Positions 933-56,678 of a stretch of DNA of 64,000 nucleotides are shown in pieces. Numbering within the stretch: the stretch's first letter is position 1; each line of letters opens with the position of its first letter. The position numbers were made by a program, and so were the translations under genes. Under the pieces are notes generated by a model, which was not told the DNA's origin, did not search any database, and was given only the letters and a program-made list of their open reading frames with translations. Source of the stretch: Actinomycetota bacterium (GTDB lineage Bacteria > Actinomycetota > Rubrobacteria > Rubrobacterales > Rubrobacteraceae); the NCBI GenBank assembly GCA_046732815.1, contig JBKPNW010000063.1, forward strand, positions 3,370-67,369, given 5' to 3'.

Positions 933-1009
933 ACAGCCAGTCAGCTAGTCAGAATTTCAGCTGGTCAGCTGCTTTGCTGAAGTGCTGACCGGCTGAATTG
1001 CTGACTAGC
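933..1009. repeat. TCAGC/GCTGA-array element E1
   Basis: (T/A)CAG(C/A) at 933, 941, 949, 957, 965, then GCTGA at 976, 984, 992, 1000: exact 8-nt period. Arms 944-969 and 984-1009 form a 23/26 inverted repeat. Confidence 0.9.
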
Positions 1010-1047
1010 GCGCCGTGCATGAGGCTCACAAGCCTCATGCACGGCGC
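1010..1047. repeat. Perfect 17-4-17 palindrome abutting E1
   Basis: gcgccgtgcatgaggct-caca-agcctcatgcacggcgc. Confidence 0.95.
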
Positions 1048-1092
1048 TTTGGACCTATATACTCTGTCGGGGAGAGACGAAAGGAGAATTCC

Positions 1093-2664
1093 GTGAGCGA
1101 GAAGGTCTACCGCAGCGAGCTTACACCGGTCAGCTTCCTCAGGCGCAGCGCCTACATGTTCCCCGAGAAGACCGCCGTCGTCTACGGCGGGCGGCGTTAC
1201 TCCTACAGAGAGTTGGAAGAACGTGTCAACCGCCTGTCCTCGCGGCTGCGCGACGCCGGGCTAGAGAAGGGCGACCGCGTCGCCTTCCTGTGCCCCAACA
1301 CGCCGCCCATGCTGGAGGGCCACTTCGCCGTACCCGCCGCCGGACTCGTGCTCGTCGCCATCAACACCCGCCTCGGCAAGGACGAGGTCTCCTACATAGT
1401 CGAACACTCCGGCGCCAAGATGGCCTTCGTGGACGCCGAGCTGGAGGAGTTGCTCGCCGACGTCGAGGGCGTCGAGATCGTTCGCATAGACGATACAGGG
1501 GAGCGGGGAGACCCGTACGAGGATTATCTGGCCGAAGGCTCGCCGGAGCCGGTACCCGACGTACTCGAGGACGAAGAAGAGACCATCTCTATCAACTACA
1601 CCTCGGGTACCACAGGTCGGCCGAAGGGTGTGATGTATACGTACCGGGGGGCTTACCTGAGCGCGCTCGGAAACGCCATCGAGATCGGGATGGGCTACGA
1701 GACCAGATACTTGTGGACCCTCCCCATGTTCCACTGCAACGGGTGGACGTTCCCGTGGGCCGTTACGGCCGTCGCGGGGACGCACGTGTGCCTGAGGCGG
1801 GTCGAGCCGCCGCGCATCTGGGAGCTCTTCGAGGAAGAGGGGATCACCCACTACTGCGCGGCACCGACCGTCCAGATCGGCATAGTCAACGAGGAAGCGG
1901 CACACCCATTGGAGACGCGCGTAACCGCGGCCATCGCCGGTGCCCCGCCCTCCCCCACCCTGCTCGGCGGTCTCCTCGAACTGAACATCCGGCCGATGCA
2001 CATCTACGGCCTCACCGAGACCTACGGCCCGATGACGACGAGCGGGGTCCATCCCGAGTGGGAGGAATTGGAGATGGACGAGCGCGCCGGCCTCATGGCC
2101 AGGCAGGGCCAGGGCTACACGACCGCAGACCTCGTGCGCGTCGTCGACGAGAACATGAACGACGTCGAGCGCGACGGGGAGACGATGGGTGAGATCGTGA
2201 TGCACGGCAACATGGTCGCCAAGGGTTACTTCGAGAACGAGGAGGCCACCGAGGAAGCGTTCGAGGGCGGCTGGTACCACTCCGGCGACGTGGCGGTGTG
2301 GCACCCCGACGGGTACGTGGAGATCAGGGACCGCAACAAGGACATCATCGTCTCGGGCGGCGAGAACATCTCGACCATCGAGGTGGAGCAGGCCGTCTCA
2401 CGCCACCCGGCCGTGATGGAGGCAGCCGTCGTCGCCGTTCCCCACGAGAAGTGGGGCGAGCGTCCCAAGGCTTTTGTCGTGCTCAAGAAGGGGCTGAAGG
2501 CTACTGAAGAGGAGATAATAGACTTCTGCAAGGAGCACATCGCCCGCTTCAAAGCCCCCGAGGCCGTCGAGTTCACCGAGCTACCCAAGACCTCGACGGG
2601 CAAGGTCCAGAAGTTCGTGTTGCGCGAGAAGGAATGGGCCGGCCGTGAAAAGCAGGTGAATTAG
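1093..2664 (+). CDS. Acyl-CoA synthetase (AMP-forming fatty-acid CoA ligase)
   Basis: AMP-binding motifs YTSGTTGRPKG, YGLTET, GD, RxKD and PKTSTGK; RBS aaggag before GTG 1093. Confidence 0.92.
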   Translation: MSEKVYRSELTPVSFLRRSAYMFPEKTAVVYGGRRYSYRELEERVNRLSSRLRDAGLEKGDRVAFLCPNTPPMLEGHFAVPAAGLVLVAINTRLGKDEVSYIVEHSGAKMAFVDAELEELLADVEGVEIVRIDDTGERGDPYEDYLAEGSPEPVPDVLEDEEETISINYTSGTTGRPKGVMYTYRGAYLSALGNAIEIGMGYETRYLWTLPMFHCNGWTFPWAVTAVAGTHVCLRRVEPPRIWELFEEEGITHYCAAPTVQIGIVNEEAAHPLETRVTAAIAGAPPSPTLLGGLLELNIRPMHIYGLTETYGPMTTSGVHPEWEELEMDERAGLMARQGQGYTTADLVRVVDENMNDVERDGETMGEIVMHGNMVAKGYFENEEATEEAFEGGWYHSGDVAVWHPDGYVEIRDRNKDIIVSGGENISTIEVEQAVSRHPAVMEAAVVAVPHEKWGERPKAFVVLKKGLKATEEEIIDFCKEHIARFKAPEAVEFTELPKTSTGKVQKFVLREKEWAGREKQVN

Positions 2665-2674
2665 AGGAGTTGCC

Positions 2675-3466
2675 ATGATCGAAGCCCAGAAGACCTACGA
2701 GCACATTGTTTTCGAGCAAGATGGCGTTGTCGCGTACGTTAGTATGAACCGTCCGAACAAACGCAACGCGCTCTCGCTCGCCCACATGAAGGAGTTGATC
2801 TCTTGCTTCAAGGGGATCGGGGAGAGCGGGGACGTTTCAGTGGTCATCCTGCGGGGGGAGGGGCCCGCGTTCTGCGCCGGGCACGACCTCTCGGAGATGA
2901 TCGGGCAAGTTCCCGGATTCTACCGGCACCTCTTCGACGTCTGTTGCGAGTTGATGGAGACCATCCAGGCCATCCCACAACCCGTGATCGCGCAGGTCCA
3001 CGCCACGGCTACCGCCGCGGGATGCCAGCTCGCGGCTACGTGTGACCTCGTGGTGGCCTCCGAGGAGGCGCGGTTCGCCACGCCCGGTGTGCGCATCGGG
3101 CTGTTCTGTTCGACCCCCATGGTCGCCCTCTCTCGCGCCATCGGCCAGAAGAAGGCGATGGAGATGCTCCTTACGGGCGAGTTCGTCCCGGCGGACGAAG
3201 CCCTTGCGGAAGGCCTCGTCAACAGGGTGGTTTCGGCCGAGGAACTCGAGGCCGAGACACGCTCCTTGGCCGAGAAGATAGCGGAGGCCAGCCCGCTTAT
3301 CGTGGGGCTCGGCAAACAAGCGTTCTACCGTCAGCTCGAGATGCCCACCGAACAGGCCTACGCCTACACCAAAGAGGTCATGTCCTTCAACGCCTCCTTC
3401 GCGGACGCCCAGGAGGGCATGTGCGCGTTTCTGGAGAAGCGTAAGCCGGAGTGGAAGGGTCGCTGA
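2675..3466 (+). CDS. Enoyl-CoA hydratase/isomerase family protein
   Basis: Crotonase motifs FCAGHDLSE, AAGCQL and FLEKRKP C-terminus. Confidence 0.92.
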   Translation: MIEAQKTYEHIVFEQDGVVAYVSMNRPNKRNALSLAHMKELISCFKGIGESGDVSVVILRGEGPAFCAGHDLSEMIGQVPGFYRHLFDVCCELMETIQAIPQPVIAQVHATATAAGCQLAATCDLVVASEEARFATPGVRIGLFCSTPMVALSRAIGQKKAMEMLLTGEFVPADEALAEGLVNRVVSAEELEAETRSLAEKIAEASPLIVGLGKQAFYRQLEMPTEQAYAYTKEVMSFNASFADAQEGMCAFLEKRKPEWKGR

Positions 3467-3480
3467 GACCGTACTCGACC

Positions 3481-3804
3481 ATGACGGATACTATCGCCCG
3501 GCCGGCGGAGAAGGAAGAGCAGAAGACGGAGGGGTTGCCCCCTTACAACGTGGTGTTGCACGACGACAACGATCATAGTTACGAGTACGTGATCCTGATG
3601 TTGAAGAGTATTTTCGGGCATCCATTCGCGAAGGGCTACGAGATGGCACGGGAGGTCGACGATATGGGCCGAGTCGTCGTGGCGACAACCAACCTAGAGC
3701 AAGCCGAGTTGAAGCGGGATCAGATCCAGGCCTTCGGCCCCGACCCGCTTATCCCGCATTGCAAAGGCTCGATGTCGGCTACCGTGGAGGCCGCATCCGC
3801 CTGA
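3481..3804 (+). CDS. clpS: ATP-dependent Clp protease adaptor ClpS
   Basis: PPYNVVLHDDNDHSYEYV motif, about 107 aa. Confidence 0.85.
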   Translation: MTDTIARPAEKEEQKTEGLPPYNVVLHDDNDHSYEYVILMLKSIFGHPFAKGYEMAREVDDMGRVVVATTNLEQAELKRDQIQAFGPDPLIPHCKGSMSATVEAASA

Positions 3805-3974
3805 CGTTCGGCCTTACGGCCTCAGCAAGTCAGCACGCTACGGCCTGCGGCCTCCGCTTGTCAGCACGCCGTCTCGCTTCGCTCGGCGGCTCGTCAGCAT
3901 TTCAGCTTGTCAGCTTTTTGTTCTGGCTGAAATGCTGAAGTGCTGACAAGCCGCGAAGCGGCGTGCTGAAATGC
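3805..3974. repeat. TCAGC/GCTGA-array element E2 with four hairpin modules
   Basis: Starts at the clpS stop. TCAGC arm, T-rich centre, GCTGA arm. The 29-mer at 3941-3969 is the exact reverse complement of 8084-8112 and 14899-14927. Confidence 0.92.
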
Positions 3975-3998
3975 GCGGTTTGCAATCCTGCAAACCGC
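3975..3998. repeat. Perfect 10-4-10 palindrome abutting E2 (possible terminator between convergent genes)
   Basis: gcggtttgca-atcc-tgcaaaccgc. Confidence 0.85.
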
Positions 3999-3999
3999 T

Positions 4000-5307
4000 C
4001 TAGGACTGATCCCAATACGTAACGGCACCATCCTTGCACTTGACGAAGCGTACGTTGCTGTCCTGCGAAATGACGACGGCTATGGCGTCGGGGAGCGCTT
4101 TGCAGAGCCGGTAGGCGGAGCGGTGGCGGGTGCCCACGCCTTCGGCCGGCTCATCGACCGCGGTGTCCGCTTCGACGTCGAGGGCTCTGGCGACGGTCTG
4201 CACGGCCGGTAGTTTGCCGGAGATCTCACCACCGAAGCCGAGCATCTCGAAGCGCTGGGTCATTACCACGGCGCCGTCTACGGCGGTGAGGCCGGCGATC
4301 AGGTGGGCCACCTCGAAGATGGCCTCGTCGAGCCCGGTCAACTCTCTGTCGCTGCTCGCCTCGTAGTCGTCCCAGCCTACGGGGTCCCTGGCCGGCGTAC
4401 CGGCGTAAGAGCGGGCCAGGGCGTTCATCACGTCGACTATTAGCGTGCGGAAGCGTCGGCGCGGCTCCGCGTCGATGAACTTGTATTTGAGGGACACGTA
4501 GCGGCCCTCTAGGATATCGTCGGCCAGGTATGGTGGGACGATAACGACCGTTCCCCCGTGATGGGAGTCCCTGACCGCGGCGATGATACGTTTTATCGTG
4601 TGTTGCCCGATCACGCGGATGAGATCGTTGTCGAGGCGGGCCCAGACCTCCCCCTTCTTCCGTGCCTGATCGCGGAGTCCGGCATGGATCTCCGCGAGCT
4701 CGCCCCTTACCGGCGCGAAGGCGTTGGGGAGCCAGCGGGAGTCGAATACGTCCATCGACGCATCCGAGAGCCTGCCTTCCTCGAGCTTGCAGAGGGACTC
4801 CGAACCGACGTCGATGGCTATGCGTCCCGGGCCGTGCACGCGGAGGACCAGGGCCTGCGGCAGGGGCGGTGGGACGTCCCTGCCACCCTGTCCTCCCCTC
4901 AACCACCGCTGTCCCGAGTGGACGAGTCCCCAGATCCCGAGGCCCTCTTCCTCGTCGAAGCCGATCCCTATGAGCGAGCGGTAATAGTCGACGGCGGGGG
5001 AGAGCCTCCTTATCTCTTGCATGTCGAACGGTCTCGTCCTCGGGAACTCCAGCCTGTGCGTCCCGCCCGGCGGTCCTTCGCGCGGCGGCAGCACGTCAGG
5101 TTCGCAGAGGATCACCCTGAACGTGACGGCGCGCTCCTCTTCTTGCAACAGACTGGCCTGGTAGCAGGCGGAGATCAGGGTCTCGAGTTCGCCCTGGTCG
5201 GGCAATGCGCCGACCCTGTCCTCGTCCCACCGCTCGCGAACCAGGCGGGCGAGGTCCGCAGGGTAAGCGTCCTGGGTGGTTCTACGCGTGTCTTCCACAG
5301 AACTCAT
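4000..5307 (-). CDS. Diadenylate cyclase (DisA_N/DAC) domain protein with an N-terminal putative sensor domain
   Basis: Both DAC catalytic motifs present (AVDGAVVM and GTRHRSA) in the C-terminal region; start ATG 5307. Confidence 0.75.
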   Translation of the reverse strand: MSSVEDTRRTTQDAYPADLARLVRERWDEDRVGALPDQGELETLISACYQASLLQEEERAVTFRVILCEPDVLPPREGPPGGTHRLEFPRTRPFDMQEIRRLSPAVDYYRSLIGIGFDEEEGLGIWGLVHSGQRWLRGGQGGRDVPPPLPQALVLRVHGPGRIAIDVGSESLCKLEEGRLSDASMDVFDSRWLPNAFAPVRGELAEIHAGLRDQARKKGEVWARLDNDLIRVIGQHTIKRIIAAVRDSHHGGTVVIVPPYLADDILEGRYVSLKYKFIDAEPRRRFRTLIVDVMNALARSYAGTPARDPVGWDDYEASSDRELTGLDEAIFEVAHLIAGLTAVDGAVVMTQRFEMLGFGGEISGKLPAVQTVARALDVEADTAVDEPAEGVGTRHRSAYRLCKALPDAIAVVISQDSNVRFVKCKDGAVTYWDQS

Positions 5308-5308
5308 T

Positions 5309-6490
5309 CTATTCTCCCGCCGGCGCCAGGCGCAGGATACGGTCGTCCTGCTCGCTGATCGGGGTACCGTAGGAGTCATAATTGGAGGTCGAGACCCACA
5401 GGGATCCGTCGGGAGCCTGGGCAACGTCCCGCACGCGGCCGATCTCCCCGTCGAGGAGCTTCTCCCTGCTTACGACCTCGCCCCTTCTGTCCAGCGCCAG
5501 GTGCCAGAGGCACTCTCCCCGCAGGGCGGTCACGAAGAGGTCGCCTTCCCACTGCGGGATAGCGCCATCGAGCAGGATCTCCGCCCCGCTGGGGGATGCT
5601 TCCGAGGTCGGCCAGACTGTGATGGGATCTACGTACCCCTGATCCTCGCCGCCCCTGCCCTCGACAGCGGGCCAGCCGTAGTTCTCTCCGGCTTCGATCC
5701 TGTTGACCTCATCCCACGTGTTCTGGCCGAATTCGCTCGCGTAGAGCCTTCCCCTTGCGTCCCAGGCGAGCCCCTCCACGTTGCGGTGGCCGTAGGAGTA
5801 GACGGGGCTGCCGGGGAAGGGGTTGTCAGGCGGAACGGAACCGTCGGGCTCTATCCGCAGGATCTTACCCCCTAGAGAGTCTCTGTCCTGGGAGTTCCCG
5901 GATTCTCCGGCGTCGCCCGTACTCGCGTAGAGCATGCCGTCGGGGCCGAACTTGATCCTACCCCCGTCGTGATACGTGTTGACGGGGATGCCCGTCAGTA
6001 GGGGCTCCGGCTTCTCGCCCAGGCGGAACCTTACGACGCGATTGTCTATCTCCGTCGTGTAGTAGGCATAGATATAGCGGTCATCCTCGTAGTCGGGGGA
6101 GACGGCGACGCCGAGGAGCCCGCCCTCGCCCGAGCCACCCTCAGGGAGGGTCTGGATCTCGCGAACGTCACCGGAGGGGCTCACCCGCAGGAGCTTCCCC
6201 GAGTCCCGCTCGGTGACGAGGGCGTCCCCACCGGGTAAGAACGCGAACGACCAGGGCACCCTCAGATTCGTGGCGAGGGTGCTTACCTCGACCCGCCTCA
6301 CGGAGGTCCTACCAGTATCCGCGGTGCTCTCCTCTCTCTTCCCTTGCCCAGTAGTTATCGGCTCGATGGCGTCCCCGCTCTTTCCACCCTCTTGTGCGGA
6401 CCGGTCGCACGCCGCGCAAAAAAGTGCGAGCAGAGCCGCCAGCAACACGGTCCTGCCAAACGAGGCGCTCTTCCGTTCTGAGCCTGGCAT
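5309..6490 (-). CDS. PQQ-dependent sugar (glucose/sorbosone) dehydrogenase, probable lipoprotein
   Basis: PWSFAFLP, GEGGLLG, HDGGRIKFGPDG and YGHRNVEG motifs; hydrophobic N-terminus with Cys. Confidence 0.88.
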   Translation of the reverse strand: MPGSERKSASFGRTVLLAALLALFCAACDRSAQEGGKSGDAIEPITTGQGKREESTADTGRTSVRRVEVSTLATNLRVPWSFAFLPGGDALVTERDSGKLLRVSPSGDVREIQTLPEGGSGEGGLLGVAVSPDYEDDRYIYAYYTTEIDNRVVRFRLGEKPEPLLTGIPVNTYHDGGRIKFGPDGMLYASTGDAGESGNSQDRDSLGGKILRIEPDGSVPPDNPFPGSPVYSYGHRNVEGLAWDARGRLYASEFGQNTWDEVNRIEAGENYGWPAVEGRGGEDQGYVDPITVWPTSEASPSGAEILLDGAIPQWEGDLFVTALRGECLWHLALDRRGEVVSREKLLDGEIGRVRDVAQAPDGSLWVSTSNYDSYGTPISEQDDRILRLAPAGE

Positions 6491-6724
6491 GCCCTCTCTA
6501 CTGCGATACCGACGAAGATTATATTGCGCGTGGGCCTGATATCGCCCTCCGGACGGAGCGTGCATACTCGATCCTTCCTTCGACGGGCGGTCCAGAGGTT
6601 ACGGAAACACGCTCTACTGCCGTCTCGCCCATGCTCTAGAATCGTGAACCAATGCTGTATTTTGGCGACGCGAAAGCAGGCCAGTGGTAAGAGAAGACAC
6701 CGAAAGTAATCTGGGGCGGGAAGC

Positions 6725-8068
6725 TTGAGGGCGCATCTGGATAGGTTGCGGCCCGTGCTTGGTGTCGCCTTCCTGGTCGGGTACGTGTGGCAGACGTTCG
6801 TGCCGGACTCTCTTGGGACGGACCTCTTTCTGGTAGTCGGGGCGGTGATGTTCGCGATCTCCGTGCCGTGGTCGAGCGTTTTCCACAGGGCGTTCGTGCT
6901 GGTGGCCTTCGTGGCGCTGGGCGCGGCGATTCTTACCGCGCGGTTCGATCTCGCGGATTTTCTCGCGGGGATGCCCACCTACTTCGGGATCGTGGCGGTG
7001 TTGATCGTCCTCAGCATGGCGGGGTATCCGATCCAGGCGGCCCGCTACGAGGTCCAGATCCGGGCCCTGATGGCGGCGCTGACCCGCAGGGGCGTGAGCT
7101 TGAAGGCGACGGCCGGAGTCCTCGGGCACGTGCTCGGTGCGGTTCTTGACGTTGGAGCGTTCGTCCTTATAGATGTGATCTCCGGCCGCTCTGCACCCAA
7201 AGAGCGCCTGGAGGCACTGAAATGGGCGGGACGAGCCTTCTCTTTCGCACCCCTCTGGACCAACCTGAACGTATTGACCGCGACGACCATCGTTCTGACG
7301 GGCGTCTCCTACCCGCAGCTCCTCGCGGTTACGCTCCCCTTCGTGCTCCTCGGCCTCGCAGGAACGCTGCTCTTCGCCCAGAGGGCGGGGGGTGAAGTCG
7401 AAGAGATCCCGCAGGCGCCGCTGGACCGGGGGGCTGCCGCCGTCCTTCTCTACCCAGTTCTACTCATCGGGGCCGTCGCGCTGGTCAACCTGGCGTTTCC
7501 CAGACTTCCGCTCACGGCGGCCATCGCGGTGACGGTCGTGTCTATCGTGCTCCTGATCGCGGCGCTTGCGGCTGTGCTCACCCGCAGGGTGACGCCCCTG
7601 GCACGGCTAGGACGGGAGGCGCGCGGCTCGCTCACTTCCTCGCACCCCGAGTTCACCCTTTTCGGGGCTGCCGGCATCCTAGTCCTCTCTTTGCAGGCCC
7701 TCGGCGCTCTCACCCCACTCGGCGCGTTGCTCTCGGCCCTGCCCGACGTGCTCGTCGCGCCCGCGCTCGCGGTGATCATGGCCGTCGGGTTCGTCGCCGG
7801 CATCCACGTGATCCCGATGGTGCTCCTGCTCAATGCCGCCTTCCCGCTGGACGGCGGGCCGGCTCCGGCGCTGTGGGCGGCGGCCCTCCTGCTCGGCGCC
7901 CAGTCCACCCTCTTGCTCACCCCCTTCTCCAGCGCCGTCACCATGCTCTCACGGCTGACCGGGCTGCACCCGCTGGAGATCGGACCCAGGCGCAACCTGG
8001 GGTTCGGCCTCATCGTATCGGCGGCCGCCATGCTGTACCTGGGGTTCATTACGCTGTTGCTCTTGTGA
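6725..8068 (+). CDS. Multi-pass membrane protein, unknown function (transporter-like)
   Basis: 447 aa ORF with about 10-12 hydrophobic segments; no motif recognised. Confidence 0.65.
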   Translation: MRAHLDRLRPVLGVAFLVGYVWQTFVPDSLGTDLFLVVGAVMFAISVPWSSVFHRAFVLVAFVALGAAILTARFDLADFLAGMPTYFGIVAVLIVLSMAGYPIQAARYEVQIRALMAALTRRGVSLKATAGVLGHVLGAVLDVGAFVLIDVISGRSAPKERLEALKWAGRAFSFAPLWTNLNVLTATTIVLTGVSYPQLLAVTLPFVLLGLAGTLLFAQRAGGEVEEIPQAPLDRGAAAVLLYPVLLIGAVALVNLAFPRLPLTAAIAVTVVSIVLLIAALAAVLTRRVTPLARLGREARGSLTSSHPEFTLFGAAGILVLSLQALGALTPLGALLSALPDVLVAPALAVIMAVGFVAGIHVIPMVLLLNAAFPLDGGPAPALWAAALLLGAQSTLLLTPFSSAVTMLSRLTGLHPLEIGPRRNLGFGLIVSAAAMLYLGFITLLLL

Positions 8069-8070
8069 AA

Positions 8071-8122
8071 GCTGGTCAGCTTGTCAGCACGCCGCTTCGC
8101 GGCTTGTCAGCATTTCAGCTTG
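8071..8122. repeat. TCAGC-array half element E3
   Basis: Four TCAGC units and the GCCGC-GAA-GCGGC module (minus strand), 2 nt after a stop codon. Confidence 0.9.
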
Positions 8123-8193
8123 CTTGGGACCCTGCGGGCGTAGTAGAGTCGAGATGTGGAGGGTTCCTGTTGGCTAGAGGAATGAGAGACTAG

Positions 8194-8958
8194 ATGGTAG
8201 TGTTCCTGATCCTGTTGTTGTTCGCTGTTATCTTCCTGGCTGCGGGCGGCGTGCTGCTGTACTTCCGTAACAGGACCAAGCAGAAGTCAGCGCTCATGAG
8301 CCAGACCGAGACCTCCACAGCATCGGAGGTCAGCGGGCTGCCGCCGGGGACGATGGTCGAGGTCAAGGGGATGCTGCGCTGCGAGGAGCCCCTTACCAGC
8401 GAGATGGCCGAGAAAACCTGTGCGTACTACTCTTCCACGGTAACACGAGAGTATCTCAGGCCCGACTACGACGATGATGACAACGACGTCGGGTCGGACC
8501 GGCGCTCCGAGATAATCGCCCAGAACGTGCAGTTCGCGCCCTTTGTCGTAGAGGACGACAGCGGCTCGGCAGCGGTGGACGCGGAAGGCGCCGAGGTCGA
8601 TGCCAGGCAGGTGATGAACCGTTTCGACAGGAACACGGGGAACGAAGGGACCTTCTCGCTCGGCGGGGTGAGCGTCAATCTCAGCGGTGGGGAGCGCACT
8701 ATCGGCTACCGCTACACCGAGAGCATCCTCCCCGTCGACGAGTCGGTCTACGTGCTCGGCACCGTACAGGAGGACGGCGGGATCGGGGCCTCACAGTCCG
8801 GCGAAGAGGGTCATAGTTTCGTCGTCAGCCACCGCTCCGAGGAGGCGCTGAGCCAGAGCCTCGGCAAGACCGTACTCTGGCTCGGCGTGGGAGGCGCCGC
8901 TTCCCTCGTTCTCGGCGTGGTCCTGCTCGTCGTCGGGATCATCTTACTGGTGTCTTGA
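8194..8958 (+). CDS. GIDE-domain-like membrane-anchored protein
   Basis: N- and C-terminal TM helices around a soluble domain with VEVKG..CEEPL.S...CAYY and RYTESILP..ESVYVLG patterns, which I associate with the GIDE family (from memory). Confidence 0.6.
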   Translation: MVVFLILLLFAVIFLAAGGVLLYFRNRTKQKSALMSQTETSTASEVSGLPPGTMVEVKGMLRCEEPLTSEMAEKTCAYYSSTVTREYLRPDYDDDDNDVGSDRRSEIIAQNVQFAPFVVEDDSGSAAVDAEGAEVDARQVMNRFDRNTGNEGTFSLGGVSVNLSGGERTIGYRYTESILPVDESVYVLGTVQEDGGIGASQSGEEGHSFVVSHRSEEALSQSLGKTVLWLGVGGAASLVLGVVLLVVGIILLVS

Positions 8959-9035
8959 CAGCATTTCAGCACGCTACGCCCTCCGGGCTCCGCTTGTCAG
9001 CACTTCAGCTGGTCAGCTTCTTGCTGAATTGCTGA
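8958..9035. repeat. TCAGC/GCTGA-array element E4
   Basis: Begins at a stop codon. TCAGC units, GCCC-GGA-GGGC module, ttctt centre, two GCTGA units. Confidence 0.9.
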
Positions 9036-9345
9036 TCCCAAGTCCGGGTGAACACGAACGGCACGACGCAGCGAGCCTTCGATTGCGGGACCTCTCCTCC
9101 TCCCAGCCCAGAAGCTCGCTCGGGGGGTCGGGCAGCCCGGGTTTGTCCGTATCGCCGAAGCCCCTAAGGTCGGGTGCGACCACGTCGAACTCTCCGGCGA
9201 GCACCGGTATATTCTTGCGCCAGGCGAACCAGAACTCGGGCCACCCGTGCAACAGCACCAGGGGGAGCCCTTCGCCGTGGCGGACGTAGTGAATGCCGAT
9301 CCCGTTCGCCTCCAGATGCTGATGGTTCCACTCGAATCCGTTCAG
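9013..9345 (-). pseudogene. Truncated epoxide-hydrolase-like alpha/beta hydrolase (N-terminal third only)
   Basis: HYVRHGEGLPLVLLHGWPEFWFAWRK and VVAPDLRGFGDTDKP present; homology stops before the nucleophile elbow; RBS ggagg followed by CTG. Confidence 0.75.
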
Positions 9346-9376
9346 GCTACTTCCTCCGACACGTAGTCTCCGCAAA

Positions 9377-9424
9377 GCCAGCAATTAGCCGGAGAAGCTG
9401 ACCGCTGACGGCTGATTGCTGGCC
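9377..9424. repeat. Degenerate GCTGA-array element E5 (7-nt period)
   Basis: gctga-cc-gctga-cg-gctga-tt-gctgg at 9397-9422, with a decayed left arm. Confidence 0.7.
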
Positions 9425-9425
9425 C

Positions 9426-10604
9426 CTAGTTCTGCAGGTTCTCGAAGATGCCCGCGGCGCCCATGCCGCCGCCGATGCACATGGTGACGAGGCCGTACTT
9501 CGAGCCGCGCCGCTTCATCTCGTGGATGAGCTGGATGGTGAGCTTGGTGCCGGTCGCGCCCATCGGGTGGCCGAGGGCGATGGCGCCGCCGTTGACATTG
9601 GTCTTCTCGAGGTCCATCCCTACCTCCCGGATCACGGCGAGCGCCTGGGCGGCGAAGGCCTCGTTGAACTCGATCAGGTCGATGTCGTCCATGGTAAGCC
9701 CGGTCTGATCCAACACTTTCGGGATCGCCACGGTCGGCCCTATTCCCATGACCTCGGGCCTGACGCCGCCCACAGCGAAACCGACAAATCGTACGAGCGG
9801 TGTGAGCCCACGTCTCTCAGCCTCCTCCCTGTCCATCACCACGACAGCGGCCGCACCGTCGCTCCTCTGCGAGGAGTTGCCCGCCGTAACAGTGCCATCC
9901 TGCTGAAAGGCGGGTTTCAAGTCGGCAAGTTTCTCCGCCGAAGTGTCGCGCGGTCCCTCGTCACGCCCGAAGCTCGTCTCCATGTGTTGTAGTTCGCCGC
10001 TCTCGTCGACCCAATCCAACTCGACGTTCAGGGACACGATCTCCTCGTCGAACACGCCACCTTCGACCGCTTTCCTTGCCAGGGTGTGGCTGCGGAGGGC
10101 GAACTCGTCCTGGTCTTCGCGGCTCACGTCGAACTCGCGGGCGACCTGCTCCGCGGTCAGGCCCATGCCCATGTAGGCCGCAGGGTTGATCTCCATGAGC
10201 CGCGGGTTGGGCGAAAAGTTAGGCATCTCGATGGTCGAAGACATGTGTTCGGTCCCCCCCGCCACGATGGTCTTGGCGTTGCCGACCATGATCCGCTCGG
10301 AGGCCATCGCGATGGTCTGGAGTCCCGAAGAGCAGAACCGGTTGACCGTCTGCGCCGGCACCGTATCGGGCATCCCGGCGAGCAAAGAGGACAGCCTGGC
10401 CACGTTGTACCCCTGCGTCCCTTCGGGCATCGCACACCCGAGGATAACGTCCTCCACATCTTCCCTCTCGAGCCCCTCCGCGCGCCCCACGGCCTCACCG
10501 ATAGCAGCGGCGGCCATGTCATCAGGGCGGCTCGCCCGCAACCTCCCCTTCGGCGCACGTCCCACCGCGGTCCGTGCCCCCGAAACGATTACAGCTTCGC
10601 GCAT
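9426..10604 (-). CDS. fadA: Acetyl-CoA C-acyltransferase (3-ketoacyl-CoA thiolase)
   Basis: [22 protein letters not shown] and CIGGGMG thiolase motifs. Confidence 0.95.
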
Positions 10605-10606
10605 TT

Positions 10607-10790
10607 TCGCTCCCTTCGGTCGCTCAGCATGTCAGCTAGTCAGCACGCTCAGGCTTCGCCTGCGTTTGTCAGCATTTCAGCTTTGTCGTGCGCTAGCCCT
10701 TGCTGACTGGCTGACAAGGCGGCAAAGCCGCCGTGCTGACAAGCGAAGCCCGTAGGGCTGAGCGTGCTGAAATGCTGAAGTGCTGACATG
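10607..10790. repeat. TCAGC/GCTGA-array element E6 filling the fadN-fadA gap
   Basis: 11-bp inverted repeat agcatgtcagc (10626-10636) / gctgacatgct (10782-10792), several hairpin modules. The 36-mer at 10735-10770 is identical to 15926-15961. Confidence 0.93.
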
Positions 10791-13163: not shown

Positions 13164-13178
13164 GCAGGCCTCCCGATC

Positions 13179-13571
13179 CTATCCGTAGAGCTCTCTGTGC
13201 AAAGACTCGATAGCATCTCTTACCCGCAAGAGGTGGGCCTCGAATCTGCCCTTGATCTCGGCGTACTTCTCTTCCCCCCGCCCCGTTATCTTGTAGAAGC
13301 GCCGGCTCCTCGTATCAGGCCGCTCCCACTCCCCCTCCACATACCCCTTCTCCTCGAGCCGCCGCAAGAGCGGATATACCGTGTTCGGCGAGACGCTCAT
13401 CGTGCCGGCAGAGATCTCACGTATCCGCGCCATGATGCTGTTCCCGTAGGCAGGCTCCTCCCTCACGAGGTGCAAGATCAATAGCGGAAAAACATCCCGC
13501 GTCTTGACCTCGCTCAAGAAGACGTCCTTCGGCGTCGTCCTCTCCACCGAACTTCCCGTCGTTTTTCCCAT
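13179..13571 (-). CDS. PadR family transcriptional regulator
   Basis: YG..I...I.....G.....PNTVYPLLRRLEEKGY and RRFYKIT..GE winged-helix pattern. Confidence 0.9.
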   Translation of the reverse strand: MGKTTGSSVERTTPKDVFLSEVKTRDVFPLLILHLVREEPAYGNSIMARIREISAGTMSVSPNTVYPLLRRLEEKGYVEGEWERPDTRSRRFYKITGRGEEKYAEIKGRFEAHLLRVRDAIESLHRELYG

Positions 13572-13593
13572 CGCCCTCGCTCCCCTCGAAAAC

Positions 13594-13609: not shown

Positions 13610-13689
13610 TAACACGGATAATAAGTTTGCGTGGAGGTCCGGGTCCTTATAGAGTTGGGACGCGGAGAGTTCGAGCGAAGGAGGAGCTT

Positions 13690-14892: not shown

Positions 14893-15072
14893 AGCATGTC
14901 AGCACGCCGCTTCGCGGCTTGTCAGCACTTCAGCATGTCAGCTTGAGGCTTCCAAGGATGGCACGTCACCCCGACAAAGGACCTAGCGTAGCGAGGCAAG
15001 CCTTCGCGCGAATGCACGAGAGGCGCATCCGTACCAAGCCGACGCAGGCGGCGTGCTGAAGTGCTGAGCTGC
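14893..15072. repeat. TCAGC/GCTGA-array element E7 with long central spacer
   Basis: TCAGC arm 14893-14943, spacer homologous to that of E8, GCTGA arm ending at the DUF998 stop. Confidence 0.88.
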
Positions 15073-15714
15073 TCATCGCACGCGCGGGGCTGATGGGGTC
15101 CCGGCCTGGCTCCGCAGGTGGATCGCCATCACCTCTACCCACGCCAGCACGTTTGCGAGGAATAGGTAGAAACCCCACTGCCACGGCGAGGCGAGCAGGA
15201 GCACTACATACAGGATTGCGGTGAAAAGGGTGTACGGGGCGTAGCCACGCCACTGTGGGTCTAGCCTCAGCCGCCGCCACCAGAAGAAGAGCGAGAGCAG
15301 GAACGAGAGGACGAGGAGGACAAAGGCCAGGAAGTGGATCGCACCGTGCCAGGTCTGGAGGCCCTGCATGGGGTAGGGGTCGGTCTTGAAGGCCGCTAGT
15401 ATCAGGGCAACGCCGGAGACCACGAGGAGCGCGGGCCCGGCCCAAGAGAACCTTCCTCGAGACGCCACTCCGCGGTGGAGACCGAGCGCGAAGAAGATCA
15501 GGGTGAGGCCGAAGAAGGCGAAGTTCAACACCTGCAGCCAACCCAGAGGTCCGAGGGCCAGATCGCTCGGCCAAGGCACGTCGGAGGCCCCCAGAGGCTT
15601 CCATCCCAACCCGAGCATGAAGCCATACTGGGCGAAGGTCAAGACAACCACCCCAAGCGCGAACACGATCGGTCCTACCATACCGGCCAGAGCCGCGTTC
15701 CTGGACGACACCAT
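15073..15714 (-). CDS. DUF998 family membrane protein
   Basis: Six TM segments; S.L..GP.GWLQ..NF, F.TDP and HG..H patterns. Confidence 0.7.
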   Translation of the reverse strand: MVSSRNAALAGMVGPIVFALGVVVLTFAQYGFMLGLGWKPLGASDVPWPSDLALGPLGWLQVLNFAFFGLTLIFFALGLHRGVASRGRFSWAGPALLVVSGVALILAAFKTDPYPMQGLQTWHGAIHFLAFVLLVLSFLLSLFFWWRRLRLDPQWRGYAPYTLFTAILYVVLLLASPWQWGFYLFLANVLAWVEVMAIHLRSQAGTPSAPRVR

Positions 15715-15776: not shown

Positions 15777-15994
15777 ACAGCACGCTTCGGGCCTTGCAGG
15801 CCCTCGCTTGTCAGCATGTCAGCTAGAGGCAGCCGAGGGCACGAGTTTCCCCGACAACCGATCGGGAATGGCGAGCGAATCCGTAAGGCGAATGCAAGGT
15901 CCGTCCATCCGTACTAAGCTGACTAGCTGACAAGCGAAGCCCGTAGGGCTGAGCGTGCTGACTTGCTGAAATGCCAAGCGACCGAAGGGAGCGA
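15777..15994. repeat. TCAGC/GCTGA-array element E8 with long central spacer and terminal RBS hairpin
   Basis: Same architecture as E7. Ends in agcgaccgaagggagcga (15977-15994), the exact reverse complement of 10607-10624. Confidence 0.9.
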
Positions 15995-15996
15995 CC

Positions 15997-33091: not shown

Positions 33092-33122
33092 TCGCAGGTA
33101 TAAGTAATACTTATACCTGCGA
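33092..33122. repeat. Perfect 15-1-15 palindrome abutting E9
   Basis: tcgcaggtataagta-a-tacttatacctgcga. Confidence 0.95.
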
Positions 33123-33232
33123 GCTAGTCAGCGGGTCAGCACGGCGATTCGCGCCTTGTCAGCCGGTCAGCAAAAACAAAAAGCTGAAATGCTGAAGTGC
33201 TGAAGTGCTGACTAGCCGGCGACTGAAAGGAG
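33123..33232. repeat. TCAGC/GCTGA-array element E9 with terminal RBS hairpin
   Basis: Perfect 10-bp terminal inverted repeat gctagtcagc (33123) / gctgactagc (33207-33216), A-rich centre, then gcgactgaaaggag. Confidence 0.92.
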
Positions 33233-45761: not shown

Positions 45762-46543
45762 CTAGCCCCCCGCCTCGACCCCGGAGAGCGCCTCACGCAC
45801 CTCGCGCAGCCACCCCCCGGCCCGCTCCGCCCCGCCTTCCTCGACGAGCCGCATGAGCTTGCTCCCGATAATAATCCCGTCGGCCTCCTCTGCAGCCTCG
45901 GCGGCGGCCCGGGCCGAACCGATCCCGAAGCCGAGGGCCACGGGCGCATCTGTCCTCGCGCGCACGCGCCTCAGAAGCTCGACCGCGCCCTGCGGCAGGG
46001 AATCACGCACCCCGGTTACCCCGGCCACGGAGACGCAGTAAACGAACCCCGTCGCCATCTCGCCGACGCGGGAGACGCGCCCGTCGGGCGAGGTCGGAGC
46101 GACGAGCGGGCAGAAGGCGACGCCGGCCGCGACCGCAAGTTCGGCGAAGTGGGCCGCCTCGTCCACGGGGAGGTCAGGGATCACCAGGCCCGAGACGCCG
46201 GCCTCTACCGCCTCCTGCAAGAATCGCTCTGCCCCGCGCGCGAAGATCACGTTGTAGTAGAGCAACAAGACTACGGGTACTCTTCCCGAGAAAGCCGAGG
46301 CGAGTTCCAGGCAGTAGTCGAGATCGGCCCCGTTCTCGAGGGCGCGCGTGGTCGTGTCCTGTATGGTCGGCCCGTCGGCGAGCGGGTCGGAGAAGGGCAC
46401 TCCAATCTCCAGCACATCGGCGCCGGCTTCCAGGTAAGCCTCCCCTACCTTCGTCGCCCCTTCGAGCGTCGGATAGCCGCCGGTCAGGTAGGGCACGAGC
46501 GCGGTCCGCCCCTCCCTGAAAGCGCTCCTCACACGGTCGCCGT

Positions 46544-46547
<4 letters not shown>
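45762..46547 (-). CDS. trpA: Tryptophan synthase alpha chain
   Basis: [31 protein letters not shown]; TTG start overlapping the trpB stop. Confidence 0.95.
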
Positions 46548-47777
<1,230 letters not shown>

Positions 47778-48414: not shown

Positions 48415-48453
48415 GCGGGTTGGGGGAGGGGCGGCGCCCCTCCCCCAACCCGC
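48415..48453. repeat. Perfect 18-3-18 palindrome abutting E10, 23 nt upstream of trpF
   Basis: gcgggttgggggaggggc-ggc-gcccctcccccaacccgc. Confidence 0.95.
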
Positions 48454-48525
48454 GCCGATCAGCCGGTCAGCAATTCAGCTTGTCAGGTTTTTGATCTGGC
48501 TGACATGCTGAGCGGCTGACTGACC
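48454..48525. repeat. TCAGC/GCTGA-array element E10
   Basis: tcagc-cgg-tcagc-aat-tcagc-ttg-tcagg, T-rich centre, gctga-cat-gctga-gcg-gctga. Confidence 0.9.
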
Positions 48526-55345: not shown

Positions 55346-55382
55346 AGAGAAGGTGCCCAAAAGGGCGGTTCGCAAACCAAAA

Positions 55383-55407
55383 GGGCGGATTTCAAAACCG
55401 CCCCTAC
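55383..55407 (-). repeat. GTAG-type REP (partial tandem copy at 55363-55378)
   Basis: gggcggatttcaaaaccgcccctac. Confidence 0.75.
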
Positions 55408-55420
55408 AGGGTCCGCGGCC

Positions 55421-56581
55421 GTGAGCGGTGTGCCTGCAGAAAACCGGTCGGCGCTGCGCGTGCCCAGGCTCGCGGTGCTCGGGGTGTTTTTCGCCAACGG
55501 GGTCGTGATCGGGACCTGGGTGGTGAGGATACCCGCCGTGCAAGGTCGGCTCGGCCTCAGCGAGGGCCTGCTCGGCGTCGCCCTGCTCGGGGCCGCGGTC
55601 GGGGCCCTGGCAGCCATGCCGCTGGTCGGGGCGCTGGTCTCGCGCTTGGGGAGCCGTCGCATCGTTGGTAGTACGGCGGCGCTGCTCGTGCTCGCGCTCG
55701 TCACGCCGGCGCTGGCGCCGAAGCTGCTCTTGCTCGTTCCCGCCCTCATGCTGCTCGGCGCGGCGAACGGCGGGCTCGACGTCGCGATGAACGCGCAAGC
55801 CGTCGAGGTCGAGCGAGGGTACGGGCGTCCGATCATGTCCTCCTTCCACGCGGCCTGGAGCTTCGGGGGCCTCGCCGGGGCCGCGCTCGGCGGGCTCCTG
55901 GCGTCCCGGGGAGTGGGGCCCCTGCCCCACTTCTCCGCTGTGGCCATCCTGGCCGCGATAGCCTTCGCCGTCGCCTACAAGGCACTCTTGCCCTCGGACG
56001 CCGACGCCTCCGAGGAAGGTGCTCCCGCGTTCGCCCGTCCGACCCGTGCCCTCCTGGGGCTCGGGGTCATCTCGTTCTGCGTTCTTCTCGGGGAGGGCGC
56101 GATGGGAGACTGGAGCGCCGTCTACCTGGAGAACACTTTGAGAACGGGCCCTGGCTTCGCGGCCGCGGGCTACGCGGCGTTCTCCGTCTCCATGGCCTTC
56201 GGACGCCTCTTCGGGGACTGGTTCATGGAGCGTCTTGGTCCTGCCACCCTCGTCCGCTCCTGCGGCGCCCTCGCCGCCACTGGACTGGGGATCGCCCTGG
56301 CCGTGGGACAGCCCTTCGTCGCGCTCCTCGGCTTCGCCTGCGCCGGCGCCGGCTTCTCCATAGTCTTCCCCGCGGCCCTCAGCGCCGCGGGACGCACCGA
56401 GGGCATCGCCACGGGACCGGCCCTCGCCGCCGTCTCCACCGCGGCGTACACGGGCTTCCTCGTCGGCCCGCCTTCCATAGGTTTCCTGGCTGAAGCGACG
56501 AACCTGGGCTACGCACTCTACCTGGTCGTAGCCCTCAGCATCGCCGTCGCCATCTTCGCCGGAGCCGTAAAGTCAAAGTAG
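55421..56581 (+). CDS. MFS transporter
   Basis: About 12 TM segments; W..RIP, DVAMN, IMSSFHA.WS.G, GR..GD patterns. Confidence 0.9.
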   Translation: MSGVPAENRSALRVPRLAVLGVFFANGVVIGTWVVRIPAVQGRLGLSEGLLGVALLGAAVGALAAMPLVGALVSRLGSRRIVGSTAALLVLALVTPALAPKLLLLVPALMLLGAANGGLDVAMNAQAVEVERGYGRPIMSSFHAAWSFGGLAGAALGGLLASRGVGPLPHFSAVAILAAIAFAVAYKALLPSDADASEEGAPAFARPTRALLGLGVISFCVLLGEGAMGDWSAVYLENTLRTGPGFAAAGYAAFSVSMAFGRLFGDWFMERLGPATLVRSCGALAATGLGIALAVGQPFVALLGFACAGAGFSIVFPAALSAAGRTEGIATGPALAAVSTAAYTGFLVGPPSIGFLAEATNLGYALYLVVALSIAVAIFAGAVKSK

Positions 56582-56608
56582 TCTAGAATGCCAACCTCAA
56601 CCAAGAAA

Positions 56609-56678
56609 GCTGAAATGCTGACAAGCGAGGGCCTGTAAGGCCCGCAGCGTGCTGAAATGCTATGACGACCGCAGGGAG
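56609..56678. repeat. GCTGA-array half element E11 with terminal RBS hairpin
   Basis: gctga units with the GGGCCT-GTA-AGGCCC module (near-identical to the reverse complement of 15777-15815), then cgaccgcagggag. Confidence 0.88.

Follow-up and report, generated by a model that had tools for sequence, protein, structure and literature searches.

The eleven intergenic elements of the window, as we call the 64,000-nucleotide stretch of a Rubrobacteraceae genome analyzed here, are probably (we estimate about 60%) gene-less descendants of a small cassette that holds a four-helix-bundle gene between two repeat arms. The complete cassette would consist of a gene for a four-helix-bundle protein of about 120 amino acids (PF05635/TIGR02436, the 'S23p' of 23S rRNA intervening sequences, IVS), flanked upstream by an array of TCAGC units and downstream by one of GCTGA units, with the stop codon of the gene inside the first or second GCTGA unit. 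The unit is 7 nt long in most bacteria; in Rubrobacteraceae it is 8 nt long and GC-rich mini-hairpin modules are added. We read the elements as an 8-nt dialect, extended by mini-hairpin modules, of a family of IVS-like cassettes for which the searchable literature gave us no description as such.

All 11 loci listed in a preliminary description of the window were found again at their positions, together with the exact recurrences reported there, a 29-mer at 3941 (+), 8084 (-) and 14899 (-) and a 36-mer at 10735 and 15926. The 8-nt periodicity ascribed to all copies holds in general but fails at one locus, element 5, which has a 7-nt period (GCTGAccGCTGAcgGCTGA, 9397-9411). On either strand the window contains 36 occurrences of GCTGANNNGCTGA, against 0.13 +/- 0.37 in shuffled sequence, and the crowding of eight copies into the first 16 kb departs from the genome-wide density (Poisson P = 5e-4). 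A further cluster of cores at 27761-27933 was rejected as a chance occurrence in coding sequence. The elements are the following.

Element 1, 936..1047, unstranded: two-armed core 941-1004 between divergent genes, with a left arm of three TCAGC units (one degenerate), the centre tgcttt, a right arm of four GCTGA units and, fused at the right end, a unique palindrome with a 16-bp stem (1010-1047); fold -41.6 kcal/mol, z -6.6.
Element 2, 3805..3999, unstranded: two-armed core 3822-3969 between convergent ClpS and DACNV-DAC genes, comprising mini-hairpin ggccttacggcc, two modules in the left arm, the centre tttttgttctg, module caagccgcgaagcggcgt in the right arm and a terminal palindrome (3975-3998); fold z -6.3.
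Element 3, 8069..8123, unstranded: single TCAGC arm 8076-8119 of four cores and one module, directly 3' of the stop codon 8066-8068; no strong fold alone (z -1.0).
Element 4, 8959..9036, unstranded: two-armed core 8966-9035 with one left-arm module and the centre ttctt, starting at the stop codon of a GIDE-domain gene and overlapping the end of a truncated hydrolase ORF.
Element 5, 9397..9422, unstranded: short single GCTGA arm downstream of the thiolase gene.
Element 6, 10605..10790, unstranded: two-armed core 10624-10786 with three modules, occupying the entire gap between a FadB-like gene (10791-13163, -) and the thiolase gene (9426-10604, -), its ribosome-binding-site mini-hairpin gcgaccgaagggagcg adjoining the thiolase start; fold z -5.5.
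Element 7, 14893..15093, unstranded: two-armed core 14899-15067, made of a left arm with a module, a 112-nt centre and a right arm.
Element 8, 15777..15996, unstranded: two-armed core 15811-15969; a module precedes the left arm, the centre measures 94 nt, the right arm holds the 36-mer module, and a ribosome-binding-site mini-hairpin follows ahead of the ADH start (15997).
Element 9, 33093..33216, unstranded: two-armed core 33128-33211, fused on its left to a unique palindrome (33093-33121) and made of a left arm holding one module, the centre aaaaacaaaaa and a right arm of four units; fold z -6.2.
Element 10, 48420..48524, unstranded: terminal palindrome 48420-48452, then two three-core arms (two-armed core 48459-48519); fold z -7.0.
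Element 11, 56600..56661, + strand: single GCTGA arm 56609-56655 with one module and an A-rich lead-in (ccaagaaa), upstream of a GH31 gene.

In the whole 3.4-Mb genome we counted 1258 double units, grouped in 380 loci. The 3-nt spacer of these units is strongly preferred over spacers of 4 nt (38) or 2 nt (80). Both arms are present at 224 of the 380 loci, every one of which has the layout (TCAGCNNN)n-centre-(GCTGANNN)n, the reverse order never occurring. This agrees with the preliminary view of a real, dispersed, modular and non-coding family that is enzyme-less within the window. The elements are confined to one genus, Rubrobacter, whose species carry between 0 and 645 triple units; four of them have no GCTGA triple unit at all. 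Runs are short, mostly 2-4 units, and 91% of the in-phase middle units are perfect. The 5-nt cores are under constraint: across 28 paralogous copies their pairwise identity is 96.8%, while that of the linked 92-nt centre is 66.8%, and thiolase dS between the window and the relatives that share element sites is 0.56-0.87. Spacers in mirrored positions of the two arms show complementarity at a rate below chance (6.8% vs 12.3%); one arm is therefore no plain mirror image of the other, and what is conserved is not a long perfect stem. The elements lie in the gap from a stop codon to the next ribosome-binding site, operon interiors included, and about a quarter of the stop-facing sides start 0-9 nt from the stop codon. 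Convergent gene pairs are enriched around them (31% vs 18%), a further 17% of copies lie between divergent genes, and the functions of the neighbouring genes are unrelated. The proposal that copies are assembled from interchangeable parts proved only partly right, as many descend from composite masters with a fixed layout, such as a 32-copy family with a 92-nt centre. The families with centres of about 90 nt (32, 16, 5 ... copies) bear no similarity to the four-helix-bundle gene, which indicates that not every copy is a simple deletion product. Element 7 has a centre homologous to those of element 8 and of the single element at the ACAD/ADH site of relatives L131, L133 and L134.

Comparison of orthologous sites, proposed in the preliminary description, revealed sites that are filled, empty or differently filled among close relatives, and the array-flanked four-helix-bundle gene suggested there as one possible partner was indeed found in relatives. 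At the site of element 6 five of them (L133, L134, L215, L216 and L217) carry this gene between the same arms, flanked by (TCAGCNNN)3-4 and (GCTGANNN)2-4. Element 11 equals, in position and layout, the right arm of a four-helix-bundle cassette upstream of the orthologous GH31 gene in L221. The genes found in relatives at these two window sites (10607 and 56609) encode 122 amino acids and belong to PF05635/TIGR02436, and the comparison shows that the gene was deleted in the window's lineage at no fewer than two orthologous sites. All Rubrobacteraceae cassettes, found at three different sites, are built on the 8-nt unit, and a module is present in one of them. At the FadB-like/thiolase site the gene has passed down vertically and therefore looks like a resident rather than a jumping gene. 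With a dN/dS of 0.08-0.13 over a dS of about 1, the four-helix-bundle gene is a working gene. We know of no enzyme activity in this protein family.

It is also shown that many copies retain no more than the two arms and the final few codons of the ORF, the latter forming the T/A-rich centre. In the window's genome, 29 gene-less copies agree with the 19 nt that end the ORF (..NKNLTS*), allowing up to 2 substitutions. Among them are element 2, whose centre and inner right arm match the end of the Rubrobacter ORF, and element 10, whose centre and inner arm, read on the minus strand, are the last 19 nt of the L133 ORF (caaaaacctgacaaGCTGA). Arrays at orthologous sites of relatives differ in unit number, spacers and modules, and one relative uses a different dialect (CATCAGG/CCTGATG) at the same sites. 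The site of element 2 is filled in L131 and empty in L130, that of element 5 holds 8-nt arrays in L133 and L134 and is empty in L131, and element 10 is absent in L225 and present in L224 with compensatory changes in the palindrome. Neither tblastn nor a profile search of all six-frame ORFs found the four-helix-bundle gene in the window's genome, which, with its 380 or so copies, counts against the cassette reading. Loss of the gene during assembly is unlikely, since contig ends are not enriched in arrays (11 vs 14 expected), although the assembly is only 92.7% complete. The earlier suggestion of mobilisation in trans is unsupported, this gene too being absent from the genome.

The cassette extends to other bacteria. 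We analyzed 80 metagenome loci encoding homologues at 59-72% identity; GCTGA arrays, mostly with a 7-nt period, lie 3' of the homologue in 68 of them (0 in the opposite orientation) and TCAGC arrays lie upstream in 29 (1 in the opposite orientation). The flanks (25 kb) contain 327 tandem pairs, whereas 140 kb of sequence elsewhere contains 35. Some four-helix-bundle loci use ACTGA-, GCTAA- or GTCAGGA-type heptamers, and cyanobacterial plasmids have the same cassette design with other heptamers. The solved structure nearest to the protein is the pentameric XCC0516 (2gsc, E 5e-21).

Genome-wide the hairpin modules amount to 451 copies (331 distinct), 324 of which have the canonical frame CAA-stem...stem-GT. 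A perfect stem of at least 4 bp is present in 81% of these 324, compared with 28% after shuffling. The triloop is GNA in 169 of 210 cases, nearly always closed by a C-G pair, and the non-Watson-Crick pairs in the stems are mostly A·G/G·A (290, vs 30 G·T and 10 A·C). GNA triloops with tandem G·A pairs are a DNA rather than an RNA motif, typified by Hirao's d(GCGAAGC) hairpin. The modules, with their C-GNA-G loops and tandem G·A pairs, are built for folding on the GCTGA strand of each arm, and the signature of single-stranded DNA mini-hairpins noticed earlier is borne out. Their polarity ignores the direction of transcription (74 sense, 90 antisense).

These properties bear on the possibility that the elements are RNA elements serving the host. 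Pairing between the arms of the transcript would make them intercistronic stabilisers, RNase III processing sites or terminators, in the manner of REP elements and rRNA IVS, and their spread would be secondary. Two-armed copies fold well beyond shuffles (z -5.5 to -7.0), the exact placement from stop codon to ribosome-binding site and the convergent-gene enrichment would suit such a role, and RNase III cuts IVS stems (PMC4990558). Yet the cores are conserved by sequence and not by covariation, and spacers that pair below chance leave 5-bp helices broken by 3x3 loops. The DNA-type loops, the indifference of the modules to transcription and the copies between divergent genes also speak against it, none of the 15 terminator-like sites within 600-17000 falls in an element and no Rfam family matches. 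We consider this explanation unlikely, though it is the best of the alternatives.

Somewhat less likely still is a genome-wide set of operator-like arrays bound by a host factor that acts in trans and is not the four-helix-bundle protein, in a regulatory network like that proposed for TAACTGA repeats. Cores that stay 97% identical in a genome devoid of the gene and arrays near start and stop codons are consistent with this, and a translational role has been suggested for the TAACTGA heptamers (PMC4679880). On the other hand we found no candidate factor, and the neighbour genes are unrelated in function; four same-genus species lacking GCTGA triple units and elements missing at orthologous sites of close relatives are hard to square with a conserved regulon.

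It is improbable that an HUH/Y1 enzyme encoded elsewhere, a RAYT or IS200/IS605 TnpA, cuts the hairpins and mobilises them in the form of single-stranded DNA, as the preliminary description had favoured. One-strand folding of the mini-hairpins, filled and empty orthologous sites and a BIME-like mosaic of few motifs are in its favour; like REP/BIME/REPIN the elements are high-copy extragenic palindromic units found after stop codons and inside operons, likely in a single-strand hairpin form. However, PF01797 is absent from the entire genome, whereas six control genomes were positive in the same search, so that neither a RAYT nor any other Y1 gene is available. The hairpin foot bears the CAA/GT frame instead of the GTAG/CGTC tag, the repeat is a fixed-phase array of 5-nt cores rather than one 20-40-bp palindrome, and a search for a recurring gene family between or beside the arrays found none. 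Moreover, four-helix-bundle cassettes of different phyla have these same arms, and it is this protein whose gene is associated in relatives.

Least probable is that arrays were made in place, by slippage or templated 3'-end extension at breaks and joining: this could account for the arm order, without exception at 224 loci, and the varying arrays and dialect of relatives also speak for it, but identical adjacent spacers (11.3% vs 14.1% expected) give no sign of recent slippage, runs are short, the fixed order of units, modules and centre in composite copies points to copying of whole elements, and descent from an inverted-arm cassette is enough to give the orientation rule.

Several known systems come close to these elements. 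ORF-bearing 23S rRNA IVS (Coxiella burnetii, Leptospira, Brucella, Xanthomonas-type S23p) carry the same protein family in the loop, terminal inverted repeats able to form a stem and variable-number short tandem repeats directly before the ORF, and ORF-less short forms exist; in Coxiella two to three tandem GACAGAT heptamers directly precede the S23p ORF (PMC4990558). The present elements differ in lying outside rRNA, in the gaps that separate protein-coding genes, with some 380 sites in a genome, in their 8-nt unit with core GCTGA and arrays on both sides, in their added modules and terminal palindromes, and in that the window's genome has no ORF-bearing copy. The TAACTGA heptamers of Beggiatoaceae, Cyanobacteria and Bacteroidetes (MacGregor 2015, PMC4679880) and cyanobacterial STRR are likewise short phased tandem repeats with a CTGA-type core, intergenic, often beside start codons and phylogenetically patchy. 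As published they are direct repeats with almost no inverted pairs, in contrast to the 8-nt period, inverted array pairs and hairpin modules seen here, and the TAACTGA description mentions neither four-helix proteins nor IVS and links the repeats to no protein family (PMC4679880). MITEs resemble the elements as many-copy, short non-coding derivatives of a longer gene-bearing element that keep its inverted ends and give filled and empty sites among relatives. In contrast, the parent element here has no known transposase, its ends consist of phased tandem arrays in which the spacers of one do not mirror those of the other, and the single clean empty/filled pair shows neither the target-site duplication looked for nor a defined insertion boundary.

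Under the cassette reading, the short forms and other forms with centres of about 90 nt would have multiplied to about 380 intergenic copies, filling the space from stop codon to next ribosome-binding site. The functional parts would be the 5-nt cores in fixed phase, read by a sequence-specific partner on the strand running 5'->3' outward from the centre; GCTGA, tandem G·A pairs and C-GNA-G loops all lie on this strand. The pentameric four-helix-bundle protein would be the obvious candidate partner wherever its gene occurs. Because the gene is missing from the window's genome the copies there are orphans, which may be kept by another factor or by ongoing copy-correction, or may be evolutionarily recent. 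The cassette connects the 7-8-base tandem repeats of bacteria, so far unexplained, with a protein family that is itself an orphan.

The preliminary description had listed 11 intergenic loci of TCAGC-NNN and GCTGA-NNN units in the window, and these were all recovered, with 36 window matches to the motif GCTGANNNGCTGA, counted on either strand, where shuffling gives an expectation of 0.13. Eight of the loci are two-armed, with TCAGC units on the left and GCTGA units on the right, and the exact recurrences reported earlier (a 29-mer at 3941, 8084 and 14899; a 36-mer at 10735 and 15926) stand as described. The single-arm loci and one short locus are:

8076-8119, single-arm locus
56609-56655, single-arm locus
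9397-9411, short locus with a period of 7 nt, not 8

Across the whole genome surveyed (3.42 Mb in 306 contigs, 63.8% G+C, 92.7% complete) the period is 8 nt in 1258 double units, grouped in 380 clusters, and 7 nt in only 80; 3-nt spacers outnumber 2-nt spacers about 16-fold and 4-nt spacers about 33-fold. The arm order is TCAGC then GCTGA in 224 out of 224 two-armed clusters of the genome, and the reverse order was never found. With gene calls made by our own heuristic, 367 of the 380 clusters lie outside genes and represent every gene context, convergent-gene gaps being modestly over-represented (31% vs 18%). All element copies lie between protein-coding genes and none was placed in 23S rRNA, in an assembly that has no 23S rRNA gene. 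The earlier statement that many copies start at a stop codon held for about one quarter of the stop-facing sides, which begin within 9 nt of the stop codon.

To place these elements in their genomic history we used orthologous regions retrieved via the thiolase gene. One of the partners envisaged in the preliminary description, a four-helix-bundle gene flanked by the arrays, is present in relatives at two sites orthologous to window elements. One is the gap between the FadB-like and thiolase genes, which holds the element 10605-10790 in the window and a 122-aa gene instead in L133 and L134, two regions fetched from relatives:

L133:9591-9956, four-helix-bundle gene with a 122-aa product

In L133 and L134 this gene is bracketed by (TCAGCNNN)3-4 and (GCTGANNN)2-3, and its stop codon lies within a GCTGA unit. 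Searches match its product to TIGR02436 'four helix bundle protein' (E 1e-36), to PF05635 and to the pentameric structure 2gsc. The gene occupies the same site in three more relatives and, with a dN/dS of 0.08-0.13, evolves under purifying selection. The other site lies upstream of the GH31 gene, where a relative has the cassette and the window has a lone right arm (56600-56661) with the same layout. This is one of two further sites at which other Rubrobacteraceae hold such cassettes, all of them built on the 8-nt unit and one containing a module, that is, one of the GC-rich mini-hairpins that interrupt the unit runs. Within the genome under study, 29 copies, among them window elements 2 (3805-3999) and 10 (48420-48524), match the last 19 nt of the ORF and the inner arm, CAAAAACCTGACAAGCTGA (..NKNLTS*), with at most two substitutions; judged on this sequence match, the short elements have the ORF tail as their T/A-rich centre. 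The gene-less copies and the gene-bearing form also have in common their ribosome-binding-site region and the junction at the terminus, GCTGA-NNN-GC(T). Neither tblastn nor a profile search of all six-frame ORFs found a four-helix-bundle gene in the window or the genome, and a search of the phage collection gave no match to it. Because the gene is absent from this genome but present at two orthologous sites in relatives, the window copies are gene-less derivatives of the cassette and not complete members. Loss of the gene through assembly breaks is unlikely in this 92.7% complete assembly, as contig ends are not enriched in arrays.

The cores of these gene-less copies are constrained. In a composite subfamily with a 92-nt centre, pairwise identity across 28 copies is 96.8% for the cores, against 66.8% for the centre and 57% for the spacers, and 91% of in-phase middle units are perfect. 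The synonymous divergence of thiolase between the window and the relatives that have these sites in common is 0.56-0.87, so that selection, copy-correction or renewal is required for cores to stay intact at shared sites. The unit runs are short, mainly of 2-4 units, with a narrow spacer vocabulary (AAT, AGT, CAT, CTA, CCA, CTT and CAA). Two simple origins of the arms were rejected: mirrored spacers are complementary in 6.8% of cases vs 12.3% on random pairing, so the arms are not mirror copies, and slippage is not indicated by any enrichment of identical neighbouring spacers. What is conserved is the 5-nt core rather than a perfect stem. The family with the 92-nt centre comprises 32 copies, for instance at C64:18339-18428 and C120:15545-15634 in the same genome outside the window. 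This centre always sits between att/aat inner units with modules flanking, and contains strongly conserved blocks (AGTCGTC, GAGCGT and GTGCGC) with variable blocks between them. It holds no ORF, and a structured RNA was rejected since there is no consensus fold beyond the arms and no Rfam match. Further centre families have 16, 5, 5 and 2 copies.

The modules are built for one DNA strand. Their frame, GCTGA-C[A/G]A-stem-loop-stem-GT-GCTGA, is canonical in 324 of 451 modules (331 distinct), and a perfect stem of at least 4 bp is present in 81% of the 324 vs 28% when shuffled. The GNA triloops described earlier account for 169 of 210 triloops, and the closing pair is C-G in nearly all modules. 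Stem positions that are not Watson-Crick pairs are A·G/G·A in 290 cases, G·T in 30 and A·C in 10. The hairpins are designed for the GCTGA-bearing strand, which is the top one in right arms and the bottom one in left arms, because the complementary strand would give TNC loops and mismatched pyrimidines. As DNA, d(C-GNA-G) loops such as d(GCGAAGC) combine exceptional stability with resistance to nucleases, to a much greater degree than as RNA. The elements are also independent of transcription, modules being oriented sense to the surrounding genes in 74 cases and antisense in 90, so that the sense strand is not favoured. Folding of the two-armed copies is much stronger than that of their shuffles (z -5.5 to -7.0), and single arms show no such improvement over shuffles. 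A partial unit, GCTGA-NNN-GC(T/G), forms the element termini, and a long unique palindrome often adjoins it; near-perfect palindromes of this kind are fused to element ends at window 1010-1047, 3975-3998, 33093-33121 and 48420-48452, and a TTTGCA...TGCAAA or gcgcgg foot is common to many of those in the genome. A mini-hairpin of module type, gcgaccgaagggagcg, with tandem G·A pairs and a GAA loop, was found at window 10605-10623, 15972-15996 and also 56662-56685, and the thiolase, ADH and GH31 genes have their Shine-Dalgarno sequence inside it. The ribosome-binding-site region may predate the element, because module-free relatives have a similar purine-rich stretch there.

Filled and empty alleles, for which the preliminary description had advised a search, do occur at orthologous sites. 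At the ClpS/DACNV site the window and the relative's region L131 have the element, and a third region, L130, is empty with a 9-nt spacer; the terminal palindrome is missing from this empty allele and present in L131, and is part of the inserted DNA. At this one clean empty/filled pair, whose 9-nt empty spacer has itself diverged, no target duplication is visible. The site 3' of the thiolase gene is empty in L131, and of two further fetched regions, L224 has an element at the PRAI/GH63 site as the window does, and L225 is unrelated there; compared with its orthologue in L224, the palindrome at 48420 shows compensatory changes in both arms. In L130 (ERZ25039576 contig_87794) the DACNV, ECH and AMP-binding genes are split into 2-3 calls and are intact in the window and L131, which suggests frameshift errors of a long-read assembly; small differences at this locus therefore need careful reading. 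The DACNV sensor domain protein itself is encoded at window 4000-5424 on the minus strand (PF21751, E 8e-29), with a weak match to the diadenylate-cyclase domain that falls under the family cut-off (PF02457, E 1e-4).

Gene content between neighbouring elements also varies. Between elements 3 (8069-8123) and 4 (8959-9036) lies a GIDE-domain gene (PF12483, 8194-8958), in the place of which L131 has a gene of the metallo-beta-lactamase fold together with the 3' portion of an alpha/beta-hydrolase gene; of the hydrolase, the window keeps just an N-terminal fragment of 123 aa at 9013-9384. It looks as though a segment has been replaced, both breakpoints falling within elements. Between elements 7 (14893-15093) and 8 (15777-15996), which have homologous centres, a membrane-protein-like gene lies at about 15073-15735 on the minus strand, and at the site of 14893-15996 the relatives' regions L131, L133 and L134 lack the gene and have a single element. 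Two window genes look like cassettes carried between elements; genome-wide this was rejected as a rule, with 42 genes flanked on both sides vs about 34 by chance and no paralogues among the 42.

The association of the gene with phased arrays extends to other bacteria. A metagenome contig scan gave 80 loci with homologues of the four-helix-bundle protein (59-72% identity), of which 68 have tandem GCTGA units 3' of the gene and none has them in the opposite orientation, while TCAGC units lie within 150 nt upstream in 29. The order of a TCAGC-type arm upstream and a GCTGA-type arm downstream holds around the gene in the relatives and in the metagenome loci as well. In the metagenome arrays 324 spacers measure 2 nt and 3 measure 3 nt, and most of the remaining loci have other cores (GCTAA, ACTGA, CTAGC and CCTCCAGC). 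Cyanobacterial plasmids have an equivalent design, for example the GTCAGGA arrays of Nostoc punctiforme pNPUN02. On Pseudanabaena galeata plasmid pPg_01 a CRISPR locus has, between cas6 and cas4 (46268-46627), a four-helix-bundle gene accompanied by long arrays of the heptamers AGCTAAA / AAGCCAA. The S23p/IVS protein family, named after the intervening sequences (IVS) of 23S rRNA, is very large (at least 8000 scored candidates, all significant) and about 70% identical across phyla. Its pentameric structure has been solved and, to our knowledge, no function is established for it; similarly, we know of no mechanism for the phased heptamer repeats reported since 1990 in cyanobacteria, Beggiatoaceae and Bacteroidetes. 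Unlike the 23S rRNA IVS, which lie in helix 25 or 45 and are excised by RNase III, the present elements are intergenic between protein-coding genes; with the TAACTGA and STRR heptamer repeats they have the CTGA core in common, and their own period is mostly 8 nt, and 7 nt at window 9397. The Coxiella IVS has tandem heptamers in variable number ahead of its S23p ORF, and a 28-bp terminal stem that RNase III cuts (PMC4990558). TAACTGA heptamers have been described as abundant and intergenic with no mechanism given and no mention of the four-helix-bundle protein (PMC4679880). Searches of the literature, largely outside subscription journals, gave no paper that connects this protein family with arrays of heptamers.

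Within the genus, the triple unit was found in 21 of 25 species, at 0 to 645 per species, and none of 16 genomes from the phylum's other families has it. The best protein matches are to Rubrobacter or Rubrobacteraceae. A scan of genome contigs with the pattern GCTGANNNGCTGANNNGCTGA proved too unspecific, returning chance matches and 24-nt coding repeats in many phyla; it nonetheless pointed to a Rubrobacter origin. In L132, from a congener with a 92% identical thiolase, GCTGA arrays are absent from the 21 kb, and CATCAGG / CCTGATG arms with a 7-nt period (5690-5840 and 11178-11200) lie at two intergenic sites that hold elements in the window. This is a dialect switch inside the genus.

Several known element classes were weighed against descent from the cassette. 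The preliminary description had favoured mobilisation in trans by an enzyme encoded outside the window, with HUH/Y1 enzymes, which act on single-stranded DNA hairpins, among the candidates; a search for PF01797, the Y1 HUH transposase family that includes RAYT and was recovered in 6 of 14 control genomes, gave no match at E <= 0.01 in the whole genome. REP/REPIN elements have a conserved GTAG or CGTC tetranucleotide as the foot of the palindrome (PMC3733652). The present elements differ in having no such foot and in the GCTGA-C[A/G]A-stem-loop-stem-GT-GCTGA frame of 324 modules. They differ from MITEs in that no related autonomous transposase element was found in the genome, and three arm pairs 1.6-2.6 kb apart, candidates for transposase-bearing copies, enclose ordinary genes for a SufB/D-like protein, a histidine kinase and an amidohydrolase. 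For a described RNA element, Rfam 15 gave no match at gathering score in the window, in elements 7-8 or in the relatives' copies of two centre families. Intrinsic terminators were dismissed, since the T/A-rich stretch sits in the loop and not 3' of the stem, and 0 of 15 terminator-like sites in 600-17000 coincide with an element.

In the descendants of the cassette a sequence-specific partner probably reads the phased cores on the outward 5'->3' strand, and wherever the gene is present this partner would be the four-helix-bundle pentamer. On the boldest version of this idea, to which we give roughly one chance in seven, the GCTGA cores are a single-strand code read by pentameric four-helix-bundle proteins, and by something else in orphan genomes, and the arms are telomere-like ends. 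In each arm the strand ending 3' outward would carry the GCTGA units and the nuclease-resistant d(C-GNA-G) mini-hairpins. This strand would be the one left single by resection or by a RecBCD/AdnAB-type enzyme coming from outside, and likewise if the cassette exists as a linear piece; the arrays could then protect the cassette or direct recombination at it. Such telomere-like arms would account for the exceptionless orientation rule, the core conservation and the indifference to transcription.

For the organism itself, the elements fill operon junctions and supply sequence beside ribosome-binding sites, and for this reason they affect annotation and probably expression in a lineage that tolerates radiation and desiccation. 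More broadly, the Rubrobacter family joins two loose ends, the S23p/IVS protein family and the phased heptamer repeats. Its form is unusually informative, with an 8-nt dialect, hundreds of gene-less copies where the gene was lost, cores that stay 97% identical while linked DNA drifts, and a module chemistry that points to single-stranded DNA and not RNA. These features make it testable whether the protein binds (GCTGANN[N])n, and in which nucleic-acid form. If the single-strand reading is true, most bacterial 7-8-nt tandem repeats, TAACTGA and STRR among them, would be traces of a single protein-DNA system of wide occurrence.
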